From assembly GCF_030684315.1 (NCBI RefSeq), contig NC_081391.1, positions 21,474,629 to 21,538,628 of the forward strand: 64,000 bases of DNA. The letters are read 5' to 3'. The stretch comes from Stegostoma tigrinum (lineage: Eukaryota). The notes beneath the pieces were generated by a model. That model saw only the letters and a list, made by a program, of their open reading frames with translations. It was not told where the DNA came from and searched no databases. Shown here in pieces: positions 3,829 through 63,732 of this stretch; within the stretch, counting starts at the first letter, position 1; every line of letters begins with the position of its first letter. Both the position numbers and the translations under genes were made by a program.

Positions 3829-6262
3829 ATGGTTTCCCAAGTGTGTCAGAACTACCACAAGGACTGTGAGGATGCTGTTAACAAGCAGATCAACCTGGAG
3901 CTCTATTCCTCCTATACTTACCACTCCATGGTGAGCTTTGTGGAATTGAAGCCTGTGCTATGATAGTGTTGACCTGTTTGGTTTTTATGCTGAGTTAATG
4001 AATTAGCTGTAACATGTATTATTTTCTGTTGCCCTTCCCCTGTTGCAATCTAGTGCAGGTCTTAACACTGACTCTCTGTTTAAAACCTGACCATTGTCTT
4101 CATGTCCAACTGGCTCCTGGATATGGAAGGCCAGCTTGCTGTCTCTGGACAATGTAACCCTTGGTGATTTTTCATCTAACTCTGGAGGGATGATGTGGTC
4201 TTTGTCAATAACTAACTTTTAAAATTGGTTGCATTCCTTTTCTCAACAAAAGCCTTCCCTGGTGGAAACTTTTCCTGACACAAATATACTCCTTTTTGTT
4301 TAAAACCTTGCCCCATTCACCAGACTGTCTTGTGCTCAGGATGTGAAGTTCCCTGAACTAAAAGAACAGCAGCTGCTGGACACTAAACACCAACAGAAAA
4401 GCTCTACACGTCTGGAAGAAAACCAAGCTCTGGGTCCACTGACCCTTTCTCAAGTGGCCTTGAGCTATGCAATGTGAGGAAAGAGGCACACTTTCACACT
4501 ATGTATGTGATTTTTTTTTTCTCTCTCTAACTAAGCAGTTAGAATTCTGTGGAGTGGATGGTAGGACACTGGGGTTATTCAGGTGGGTGATGGTGATAAT
4601 GAGGCTGCTGACTGAGCTTTCTGGCTGTGTTCACGAACACACGTCCCTTCATTCAGTTGGACAGGGGCCTAACTGGTCTCCACCTCCTGAACAATAGTGT
4701 TTCTAACCTGCAGAGCAGGGATGTCTAATGGCTGTAGACAGCTCTCCCCTTCATCAGGCACCATGCCACATGCACTGTCTCTCTCTCTCTCTCTCTCTCC
4801 TGAACACAGGCTAGGGATTGCATTTGGTTTTTGTCCTTGATTTCCAGAAAGCTGGTGAAATATCTGCACAAAGGCTGGTTAAGTATCTGTTGTTTGGGTT
4901 ATAATCCATGGAAGGTGACTTCCTGCTTTGTCTGTTTTTTACCACTTAAATGTGGAATCAAGATGGTGCCCAGGTTAGTTCCTGAGTGAGGAGTGTCATT
5001 CATGAATTTCAGACAGTTTCCTTTTAGCCTCTTTCTCCCCACAGTTCTCTTACTTTGACCGGGATGATGTTGCCCTGCATCACTTTGCTGAGTTCTTCAA
5101 GGAGCAGTCCCATGAGGAACGGGAACACACTGAGAAACTGATGGCATTCCAGAATAAACGTGGCGGTCGAATTGTGCTGCAGGACATTAAGGTTGGATTC
5201 TGAAGCCTTCTGTTTTGTGGCTTTTTGTGAGCAGCTACAATCGACTGGTTTCTCCAGCTAATTCAATTTAGCATTGAACAAATACTGTATGAAGGGGAGG
5301 TTGTTCACCAAAATAGGCTTCCTTTAGGTGAAAGGAAATAATCATCAATTGAGACTCACCAGAATAGTGAGTAGATATCAATGTGAATGACTCTCCTTTA
5401 GACAGAATAAGGGAACAAAAGCTAAGACAGGAAATTGTTGGAATGTGGAAAGTAGCAGTGTCCAGCCTTTCAGAATCTAGAAGATGTTTCTAATGCCACA
5501 ATCGTGAAGCCAGGAATTACTTCCATTGGTACCTATTCTCTGCATGTGAATTCTAAGAATCTACATGAACAGTAGAATGTGTTTAGAAAATTTCTTATTT
5601 CCCTCAGTACAAAATCTAGTTGTCTTGATCAAATTCAAGTTTGTAGTACCTCCCTACAATGATGAGGGATAACTAACTGGTGTAGACTGATGACTCAACT
5701 GCCTGCTGAACTGTGCTTTCTGTTCCCTCTTCCCTCCCTCCAGAAGCCAGAGCAGGATGAGTGGGGCAATGGTCTGGAGGCAATGCAGAGAGCTCTGCAG
5801 ATGGAGAAGGATGTGAACCAGAGTCTGCTGGATCTGCACAAACTGGCCTCTGGCCACATGGACCCTCATGTGAGTGTGGTGTATTTAAATCTGGGTTTTG
5901 AATTAAAAACAGGGATCAGACACTTGGTCCTTTTTGTGAGCCACAAGATCTCATTTGACACTGGAGGATTTTCTTGGGTTATACCAAGATCCTCCTGTTT
6001 GTAAAACTGAGCACTTTCTCGTGTGTATTTGGCAATCTCCATGACATCACTTCACTGTTCGGTCTCCCAAGCTGTATTTTGTCGGATTTAACCAGTTCCC
6101 CTCTTTGTCTTCCAGCTGTGTGACTTCCTGGAGAGGCACTACTTGGATGAGCAAGTGAGGATGATCAAGAAGCTGGGAGATCACATCACCAACCTGAAGA
6201 GACTGGGAGCCCCTGACAATGGCATGGGAGAGTACCTGTTTGACAGGCTCTCACTCAGTTGA
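3829..6262 (+). CDS. Ferritin subunit (H/M-type, ferroxidase centre intact), copy A; exons 3829-3930, 5045-5191, 5744-5869, 6116-6262; 173 aa
   Basis: Spliced translation [177 protein letters not shown] phase-0 introns at the vertebrate ferritin positions; TATA upstream; ATTAAA at 6331. Confidence 0.95.
4777..4799. repeat. (CT)n microsatellite in intron 1 of copy A
   Basis: Run of about 11 TC units. Confidence 0.8.
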
Positions 6263-7232
6263 ATGAGGTCAATAATGTGTATATTGTACATGGTGACATA
6301 ATGCTAGTAACTTGGTTGTGCTCTGAGCAAATTAAAATAGTGTTCACCATGGAACTGAGTACTTGGCATAATTTCACAGCTGACTCTGGCTCTTGGTATT
6401 GCTGTTTGACACCTGATCATTAATTCCTTTTCTGTTCTGATTAACCTTTGATTCAATGCCTGCCCCAGTGGTCTGCTCCTTTTCTCTTGTCTGTCGGAAT
6501 TAGGTGGGCAATCCTTGCAGTGGAAATTCCACAAGTGTTCAATTTGGGTTTTTGGCTAGTAAGCAGTGTTGTATTGACTCTTTTATTCCATACCAGCTTC
6601 TAGTCAATATCTTCAGTGAAACCAGCCCCCTGTCTCAATGTTAGACACTGCCCTTGGCAATGTTTAGGTCTCTTTTGTAAACAAGCAGGGGCAGGAAATA
6701 GTAGGTTTGGGGAGCCTCTGTGGAGAGAAAACTGTTCTCAGTCCCAGGTTCCAAGATACGTTATCATCTTGTGACAGACGTGGCCAGACCGGTGAGGCTT
6801 TCCAACAATTTTGTTGTCACACTTCAAATCTAATGATTTGAGCGTACATTGACTTTTTTGAACAGGAATATATATATATATAGTAGACCATCCAGCATTT
6901 CAGATGCTCAGATCTTTAGCATTTAGATAAGCCATTGTGTCCAGAGCAGGGAAATTGTTTTCTCTCTTTTGCTGCAGTGGTGGAAGGAGTGAGGGCAGTG
7001 GCTGTTTGTAGGAGAATGGCAAAGTTTGTTTTCTTGTGTATCAGTCTCTCTGCTTCTAGACAATGATCCTGATTAGGTAATGAAGCAGTCGCCACCTTCG
7101 AGCCCCTGTGGTAGAACTTCTATCACTTCTCTGCGGTCTAGAGACGTCAAATGCTCAGAACCCCTGGTGAAAATCAAGCTCGAACCCAACGGCCACTTGC
7201 AGAAAGCAGCAGTTCCTATTCTTAGCAAGGAA

Positions 7233-61302: not shown

Positions 61303-61373
61303 TACAAGAGCCTGTGGGAGAGAGAGACTTAGTTCTAGAGTTTTCTTGGTGCTTGTGAGCAGGAGTAGTGAAG

Positions 61374-63732
61374 ATGGTTTCCCAAGTGTGTCAGAACTAC
61401 CACCAGGATTGTGAGGATGCTGTTAACAAGCAGATCAACCTGGAGCTCTATTCCTCCTATGTTTACCTCTCCATGGTGAGCTTTGTGGAATTGAAGCCTG
61501 TGCTATGATAGTGTTGACCTGTTTGGTTTTTATGCTGGGTTAATGAATTAGCTGTAACATGTATTATTTTCTGTGGCCCTTCCCCTGTTGCAATCTAGTG
61601 CAGGTCTTAACACTGACTCTCTGTTCAAAACTTGACCATTGTCTTCATGTCCAACTGGCTCCTGGATGTGGACGCCCAGCTTGCTGTCTCTGGACAATGT
61701 AACCCTTGGTGATTTTTCATCTAACTCTGGAGGGATGATCTGGTTTTGGTCAATAACTAATTTTTAAAATTGGTTGCATTCCTTTTCTCAACAAAAGCCT
61801 TCCCTGGTGGAAACTTTTCCTGACACAAATATACTCCTTTTTGTTTAAAACCTTGCCCCATTCACCAGACTGTCTTGTGCTCAAGATGTAAAGTTTCCTG
61901 AACTAAAAGAACAGCAGCTGCTGGACACTAAACACCAACAGAAAAGCTCTAAACATCTGGTTGAAAACCAAGCTCTGGGTCCACTGACCCTTTCTCAAGT
62001 GGCCTTGAGCTATGCAATGTGAGGAAAGAGGCACATTTTCACACTATGTATGTGGTTTTTTTTTCTCTCTCTAACAAAGCAGTTAGAATTCTGTGGAGTA
62101 GATGGTAGGACACTGGGGTTATTCAGGTGGGTGATGGTGACAATGAGGCTGCTGACTGAGCTTTCTGGCTGTGCTAATGAACACATGTCCCTTCATTCAG
62201 TTGGACAGGGGCTGAACTGGTCTCCACCTCCTGAACAATAGTGTTTCTAACCTGCAGAGCAGGGATGTCTAATGGCAATAGCCAGCTGTCCCCTTCATCA
62301 GGCACTATGCCACATGCTCTCTCGCTCTCGCTTGAACACGGGCCAGGGATTGCATTTGGTTTTTGTCCTTGATTTCCAGAATGCTGGTGCAATGCCTGCA
62401 CAAAGGCTGGTTAAGTATCTGTTGTTTGGGTTATAATCCATGGAAGGTGACTTCCTGCTTTGTCTGTTTTTTTTCCACTTAAATGTGGAATCAAGATGGT
62501 GCCCAGGTTAGTTCCTGAGTGAGGCGTGTCAATCACAAATTTCAGTCAGTTTCCTTTAGCCTCTCTCTTCCCACAGTTCTCTTACTTTGACCGGGATGAT
62601 GTTGCCCTGCATCACTTTGCTGAGTTCTTCAAGGAGCAGTCCCATGAGGAACGGAAACATGCTGAGAAACTGATGGTATTCCAGAATAAACGTGGAGGCC
62701 GTGTCCTCCTGCAGGACATCAAGGTTGGATTCTGTCTTGTAGAGTAAATGCAAATTGTGTAGTTTCCTGCTTGTACAATGGCCTTGCTGTTCAAGACTCC
62801 CCTGTACATCTTGTGTGGAGATGAGTGAAGTGTCTTGGTAGAAAGTCTCTTCTTGATGTGAGTTGGTTTTGCTAATTCTTGCCTTTCTAAAAATTCAACA
62901 AATCTGAACGCTCAGAATGTGAGGGTTTTAGCACTGACCTGGCCCAAATGTCAGTTTAGACTATGATACATTACTGTAGACTTGCCTGAATACAGGTAAT
63001 GTTGTCCTACTGTTTCAGCCAGTTTTTAAATCCTGATCTGTCAGCAGTTCTTCATGATGGATCAAATGTCTGATAATGGTCTCCATGACCTTATCTGAAT
63101 TTTGAATTGACGTTCATCCTTTGGGTGGACTGAGCACAGAGATTACCATATGTCTCCATTTCCTTGCCCTCATATGAGTCTTGGACCTTCTAACCACACT
63201 AATGACCATCCTTCTCCCTCCAGAAGCCAGAGCAGGATGAGTGGGGCAGTGGTCTGGAGGCAATGCAGAGAGCTCTGCAGATGGAGAAGGATGTGAATCA
63301 GAGTCTGCTGGATCTGCACAAACTCGCCTCTGGCCACACTGACCCTCATGTGAGTTTGTAAACTTTTTTCTCTCTCTTACTTGGAAGAAAGTGGTGTGTT
63401 TGTGCACTCTCTCTCTGGGTTAAAAAGTCCAATTACCTTCTCCCAGCCTCCTGCCGGCTGTTAATGCCTTTGAAAGGCATCACCTAAGTGGACTTCCACG
63501 TGGTAGTGATGGTCACATCTGTCATGGGAGGTCACTTTCAGACACCTTTTAGATTCCTCTGAATTAATTTTGTCTTGTTTTCCAGCTGTGTGACTTCTTG
63601 GAGAGGCACTACTTGGATGAGCAAGTGAAGATGATCAAGAAGCTGGGAGATCACATCACCAACCTGAAGAGACTGGGAGCCCCTGACAATGGCACGGGAG
63701 AATACCTGTTTGACAGGCTCACACTCAGCTGA
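61374..63732 (+). CDS. Ferritin subunit, copy J; exons 61374-61475, 62577-62723, 63224-63349, 63586-63732
   Basis: Open 173-aa spliced frame, canonical splice sites, TATA at 61297; SHEERKH variant; unique intron 2. Confidence 0.92.

Follow-up and report, generated by a model that had tools for sequence, protein, structure and literature searches.

Why should a shark genome hold ten ferritin genes side by side, all on one strand, and what might so many copies be for? The question is raised by a stretch of 64,000 nucleotides of the Stegostoma tigrinum genome (contig NC_081391.1, positions 21,474,629 to 21,538,628 of the forward strand), which is called the window below and whose first base is position 1 of all coordinates given here. 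An earlier note, made from the letters alone, had described the array in outline. Our preferred reading, to which we would assign a probability of about two in three, is that the window is a slice of a large elasmobranch ferritin cluster supplying a dosage-amplified, iron-uncoupled ferritin for iron storage in the oocyte.

When exons 1 to 4 of copy 1 were used as queries against the window, 39 exon matches were obtained, with E values of 1e-36 to 1e-74, well past chance expectation, and these assemble into ten ferritin exon sets, all on the plus strand, between 3829 and 63732. The exons measure 102, 147, 126 and 147 nt, are in phase 0 throughout, and recur with an exon-2-to-exon-2 spacing of 5.0-7.9 kb (mean 6.4 kb). 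The earlier note had spoken of ten co-oriented four-exon genes, eight of them intact. The number and orientation of the copies stand, but four exons and three introns are present in only nine, since copy 2 (10056-11269) consists of exons 2-4. The eight intact genes are as described, each having an ATG, GT-AG introns and an open frame of 173 codons, and each is followed by a poly(A) hexamer 66-73 nt 3' of the stop. They are copy 1 (exons 3829-3930, 5045-5191, 5744-5869 and 6116-6262), copy 3 (14496-16890), copy 5 (25871-28821), copy 6 (33270-35657), copy 7 (41318-43586), copy 8 (47196-50163), copy 9 (54458-56852) and copy 10 (61374-63732); the other pseudogene, copy 4, occupies 19834-22224. With introns in all ten, processed retrocopies are ruled out. 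A paralogous match elsewhere in the window exists for 97.7% of its sequence. Array sequence had also been claimed at both edges, and this holds for the left one: base 1 aligns with points that lie 584-595 nt past the stop codons of five other copies, which makes another unit immediately upstream probable. The segment 1-3529 (plus strand) is the intergenic part of a repeat unit and begins at this distance past the stop of the presumed upstream copy. The right edge is copy 10's own 3' flank and is uninformative on additional copies. The window contains no genes that flank the array.

Before function is considered, it must be asked if the array is real, or if a few genes have been multiplied by collapsed or duplicated haplotypes in the assembly. 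Some units are indeed close: identity reaches 97.7% between units 3 and 9 across 4.45 kb, and 98.9% between units for a single intergenic block of 1 kb. Yet the alignment of units 3 and 9, the closest in the window, contains 93 substitutions and 6 indels among its 4453 columns, the two have different neighbours, the longest exact repeat is 437 nt, no two coding sequences are identical (92.7-99.0%), and there are unique introns and insertions and not a single N in the sequence. Repeat length, the roughly 2% divergence of the closest pair and its differing neighbours rule out assembly duplication of the array, and we give an artefact of this kind practically no weight.

The encoded chain is, as identified from residue positions and gene layout, a predicted vertebrate cytosolic ferritin. 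In fish ferritins the ferroxidase residues are given as Glu24, Glu58, Glu59, His62, Glu104 and Gln138, the nucleation residues of M/L chains as Glu54 and Glu61, and four exons as the vertebrate norm (PMC4117605). In the same numbering, none of the six ferroxidase residues has been lost from the eight intact copies or from copy 4; Glu54 is present in ten of ten copies and Glu61 in nine, with Lys in its place in copy 10. The chain would have M-type features, although Glu54 and Glu61 together with the ferroxidase residues cannot by themselves tell M from H, and it is predicted to act like a ferroxidase-bearing ferritin of the H/M kind. By inspection of the N-termini, which are polar and have no hydrophobic leader, there is no signal peptide, and the protein would therefore be made inside the iron-storing cell.

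The proteins of the intact copies are 89.6-97.1% identical to one another. Their ratio of nonsynonymous to synonymous substitution rates (dN/dS), pooled by the Nei-Gojobori method over 28 pairs, is 0.32 with a codon-bootstrap 95% interval of 0.20-0.52, a value drawn from non-independent pairs and blurred by gene conversion. It is not near 1, the outcome that the earlier note had held against its own proposal. Among singleton changes, 25 are replacements and 24 are silent, where the ratio of sites is 3.8, and the two pseudogenes compared with the intact copies give dN/dS values of 0.63 and 0.42. The copies are genuine paralogs under purifying selection. Every intact copy nonetheless has private replacements, and replacements are shared at 13 sites, for example Cys26 in copies 3, 4 and 9 and His32 in copies 1 and 6.

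For copy 1, the promoter and short 5' untranslated region (UTR) lie at 3530-3828 on the plus strand, with inverted CCAAT boxes at 3650 and 3680 (the second within a Y-box-type motif at 3677-3688), an E-box, a TATA box at 3752 and no iron-responsive element (IRE). Two inverted CCAAT boxes and the E-box are common to all eight intact copies, which fall into three classes farther upstream: the core from -300 to -151 has 86-92% invariant columns across these copies, against only 0-64% from -700 to -301, and eight of the nine CTGATTGG sites in the window fall in intact-copy promoters. The TATA box lies 55-77 nt upstream of the ATG in six of the eight and is degenerate in copies 3 and 9; with the start site taken from the TATA position, the 5' UTR would span some 25-50 nt. 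Between the coding sequences of copies 3 and 9 there are five replacement and no silent changes, Cys26 is common to both and a canonical TATA is found in neither, and the pair may form a subgroup that is silenced or under different control.

None of the eight Rfam matches found at E<=5 in the whole window belongs to the IRE family. A loose scan for IRE-like hairpins gave five matches, none of the five in a 5' UTR, and the sole hairpin with all five pairs, at 24593, falls in an old remnant of a long interspersed nuclear element (LINE). Four 5' UTRs were folded and did no better than shuffles. In Atlantic salmon, an IRE is reported for all five ferritin genes (PMC4117605).

How, then, has the protein stayed uniform across the array? 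The introns of the copies are far from uniform. Intron 1 occurs in three classes, 18-39% apart, and the 3' flank likewise in three; intron 2 occurs in two classes, 26-32% apart, apart from that of copy 10 (62724-63223), which matches nothing else in the window, so that more intron classes are to be expected elsewhere in the array. Intron 3 exists as two types whose alignment was no better than shuffles in the three pairs tested; reverse-complement scores were no better than shuffles either, which rules out inversion as the origin of the unalignable introns. Because intron classes have diverged until they are unalignable, we judge the array to be old. The exons tell otherwise. Across the intron-3 types the exon silent distance is 7.1%, with one fixed difference in 273 nt, and across the intron-1 and intron-2 classes it is 13-14%, whereas the corresponding intron distances are 58% (intron 3), 29% (intron 1) and 37% (intron 2). 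Pairs of the same class have an intron distance of 5-8% and an exon silent distance of 4-9%, and silent sites are therefore not unusually constrained, which rules out silent-site constraint as the cause of exon uniformity.

The copies are, moreover, mosaics, types a and b of intron 1 being joined to types a and b of intron 3 in all four combinations. Trees were built for seven of the ten copies, leaving out copies 2 and 4 (segments absent) and copy 10 (unalignable intron 2) and omitting intron 3. In approximately unbiased (AU) tests the alignment of promoter plus intron 1 rejects the trees of all three remaining segments, the same is true of the 3'-flank alignment, and the intron-2 alignment rejects two of the three others; the coding tree has a length of 0.15 substitutions per site, against 0.56-0.72 for the flanks. 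Since near-identical exons flank old intron classes, the mosaic pattern favours gene conversion limited to exons over birth and death alone. The birth-and-death evolution proposed earlier survives as regards gene death, which is seen in two of the ten copies, and is not supported as the sole process, for exons have apparently been homogenised across old intron classes; the simplest account would be a mixture of concerted and birth-and-death evolution. Histone and ribosomal RNA genes are dosage arrays under concerted evolution, their coding parts homogenised and their spacers divergent, and the window array is like them in its tandem units, homogenised coding parts and divergent spacers. It is unlike them in that homogenisation ends at exon borders in an intron-bearing protein gene and in that dead units persist.

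Large ferritin clusters are already known from sharks. In the Greenland shark, 155 FTL and 179 FTH1 copies are reported, counts that possibly represent the same genes under two names; about 80% of the copies are grouped into three clusters whose synteny is the same in the white shark, a species that parted from the Greenland shark about 250 million years ago, more than 85% of the copies are full length, and the largest cluster is described as ovary-specific in expression (bioRxiv 10.1101/2024.09.09.611499). These clusters and the window array alike are dense groups of mostly full-length ferritin genes in a shark genome, and it is very likely that they are the same system, the window array being presumably orthologous to the published cluster. 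Ovary expression and an oocyte function of the window array would then be expected by analogy, and the earlier suggestion that the genes may serve the iron loading of yolky oocytes agrees with the ovary-specific RNA reported for the Greenland shark. Clusters in both Greenland and white shark, on the other hand, leave the term "lineage-specific" unsupported if it is to mean recent or unique, and a 14-copy fthl27 array is known from the hadal snailfish besides. The expansion itself is thus already published; what is added here is the missing IRE, the conserved CCAAT/TATA promoter and the mosaic nature of the copies. The Greenland-shark preprint gives the cluster one paragraph, and its available text is silent on IREs, promoters, dN/dS and conversion, while the words ferritin, fth, ferroptosis and iron are absent from the available portion of a second preprint on the same species (bioRxiv 10.1101/2025.02.19.638963). 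No other publication dealing with the shark cluster came to light, nor any on its IRE loss or exon conversion, in a search from which subscription journals and bioRxiv supplements were largely absent, so that an earlier description there is possible.

Other known ferritin families are more distant parallels. The fthl27 array of the hadal snailfish, in which a fish gene of the ferritin heavy-like type has been amplified in tandem and likewise read as a matter of dosage, differs in being recent, in its broad expression and role in defence against reactive oxygen species (ROS), and in belonging to a teleost (PMC10746142). Atlantic salmon M1-M3 share the four exons and have the ferroxidase residues and Glu54/Glu61 at matching positions, but they are few in number and IRE-bearing, whereas the window genes encode 173 amino acids and no IRE was found in them (PMC4117605). 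Mammalian genomes, too, contain many ferritin copies, yet the extra ones are reported to be inactive retro-pseudogenes (PMC11719527), unlike the tandem window copies, which have introns and promoters and are under selection.

Could the same observations be read in another way? One alternative is that dosage serves protection from iron-driven oxidative damage, or the withholding of iron from microbes, in many tissues. In the snailfish, fthl27 is highly expressed in most tissues, and cells transfected with it show less ROS (PMC10746142); infection is reported to elicit a ferritin response in fish (PMC4117605), and a chain free of an IRE would also suit an iron-independent induction. The Greenland-shark cluster is reported to be ovary-specific instead (bioRxiv 10.1101/2024.09.09.611499) and the window contains no pointer to immune control; the immune role suggested in the earlier note found no support in anything examined, and we regard this alternative as improbable. 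It is at least as improbable that the array is largely neutral, its number inflated by unequal crossing-over among units or retroelements while few copies are needed and most decay. Decay is certainly present, with two of ten copies dead, one ghost unit, two of eight intact copies lacking TATA and the private replacements already mentioned, and conversion could carry a selected signal from a few active copies into idle ones. Against this, dN/dS lies far below 1, singletons included, the promoter core is kept across three upstream classes, and the shark clusters have reportedly been retained, mostly at full length, since the Greenland and white shark lineages parted (bioRxiv 10.1101/2024.09.09.611499).

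The shared replacement sites and the three promoter classes could alternatively indicate diversified chains, that is, copies specialised by positive selection for tissue or heteropolymer roles. The closeness of the proteins, their invariant catalytic residues and the short coding tree speak for uniformity instead, and we consider diversification very improbable. Several observations do weigh against our own reading of an iron-uncoupled oocyte ferritin in an old, exon-homogenised cluster. The placement of the chain among H or among M/L ferritins stands on residue positions. The IRE searches were made without a positive control and with a transcription start taken from the TATA box. The CCAAT/Y-box is a general promoter element, and since the motif is reported not to be a specific Y-box protein site (PMC7226217), it is weak evidence for oocytes. 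The intron-2 data cannot separate the intron-2 tree from the intron-1 tree, and the coding alignment rejects only one of the three non-coding trees in the AU test. Finally, with one gene per 6.4 kb the window is about five times denser than the Greenland-shark cluster, for which 118 genes in about 4 Mb are given (bioRxiv 10.1101/2024.09.09.611499).

If the oocyte-storage reading is nevertheless correct, the system would work as follows. In each unit of about 6.4 kb, a compact promoter made up of CCAAT, E-box and TATA elements would transcribe one gene of four exons; its message would start with a short, IRE-free 5' UTR, and its product would be a ferroxidase-competent ferritin chain of the cytosol, M-type in its features. 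Many copies would make the chain abundant, and at low iron there would be no block on translation by iron regulatory proteins (IRPs); many IRE-free copies would thereby give much chain whose translation escapes IRP repression. Most likely, such a supply would let the oocytes, which are very large and yolky, load and detoxify iron on behalf of the embryo. In an old array, uniformity of the protein could be kept by purifying selection together with gene conversion or crossing-over confined to exons, which, being kept alignable by selection, would be the sole points at which such exchanges can start or end. Occasionally a whole unit would be duplicated, as may be the case for units 3 and 9, and single units would die by retroelement insertion and deletion.

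The dead units in the window illustrate such losses. In copy 2, exon 1 and the promoter are absent, the exon-2 acceptor is GG, and ferroxidase ligands 58 and 59 are altered; the site expected for the promoter and exon 1 is occupied by a truncated CR1-type LINE fragment with an RVT_1 match (E 1e-12) at 8234-9397 on the plus strand. Copy 4 has lost its promoter and ATG because a minus-strand retroelement fragment (18908-19836) is fused to it at codon 2, and an extra base before its exon-3 donor shifts the frame, resulting in a stop at codon 128. This fragment may be Penelope-like; it has a weak GIY-YIG match (E 0.046, below the cut-off). Adjoining it, at 18515-18912 on the plus strand, lies a 3'-flank remnant of an eleventh, deleted unit, 98.8% identical to the copy-10 flank over the 168 nt available and 91% to the copy-6 flank, which implies that a recent deletion or rearrangement took out the whole gene; a flank is therefore no guarantee of a gene.

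A second truncated CR1-type LINE fragment with RVT_1, at 38025-39219 on the plus strand, has, for 38025-39140, carpet sharks as its best named vertebrate relatives (Chiloscyllium punctatum 66%, S. tigrinum 65%), followed by rays at 53-57% and birds and turtles at about 50%, among the best 120 of 1648 matches and with two records set aside above the carpet sharks, one without a name and one labelled as a bacterium. This indirectly indicates a cartilaginous fish as host, probably a shark. Two short proteins among these best 120 of 1648 carry a bacterial label, share 62-70% identity with the CR1 reverse transcriptase of shark type and resemble mislabelled or contaminating vertebrate DNA. Tandem repeats occur at 7229-7343 (51-nt unit, 2.3 copies) and, within the retroelement tail, at 19191-19302 (39-nt unit). 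A short segment at about 59502-59601, located in the remains of an old spacer LINE, is inverted relative to other units, as seen from minus-strand self matches. A spacer segment is open for 110-200 codons in five close units (2406-2882, 31858-32322, 39958-40370, 52856-53449 and 59831-60427) and is probably an old repeat remnant kept open through recent duplication.

A further feature accompanies the introns. Seven of the eight Rfam matches are sub-threshold hits to sR1 (19-27 bits, cut-off 45) near the 3' end of intron 2, at 5655-5711, 10653-10714, 16272-16333, 28207-28268, 42996-43057, 49549-49610 and 56235-56296, where a set of C-box/D-box-like motifs is kept across two intron classes and is missing from copy 10. 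The set may suggest a small intronic C/D RNA. Intronic C/D small nucleolar RNAs, however, lie 60-90 nt before the acceptor, and the D-like motif here lies about 33 nt before it; the sequence also folds no better than shuffles, and we rejected this candidate as unlikely on its score below the cut-off, its shuffle-level folding and its wrong acceptor spacing. Probably the motif represents the region of the branch point and polypyrimidine tract, which would have travelled together with exon 3.

These results suggest some caution, in that copy counts of shark ferritins, their H/L labels, exon-based dN/dS and divergence dates can all mislead. Exon-limited conversion, if general among sharks and rays, would also offer a clean natural case for measuring the limits of conversion tracts at exon borders. 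A wider proposal may be put forward tentatively, and we hold it to be somewhat less than an even chance: elasmobranchs may possess a dedicated battery of at least 100 IRE-free oocyte ferritin units, whose product would be an iron-yolk protein of the cytosol, synthesised by the egg itself without iron feedback, and this battery would have been kept for hundreds of millions of years by exon-confined conversion that shuffles old, unalignable introns, with a copy number that tracks egg size and reproductive mode. Should the loss of the IRE and the restriction of conversion to exons prove general among sharks and rays, they would explain how a vertebrate can stock very large eggs with iron outside IRP feedback.

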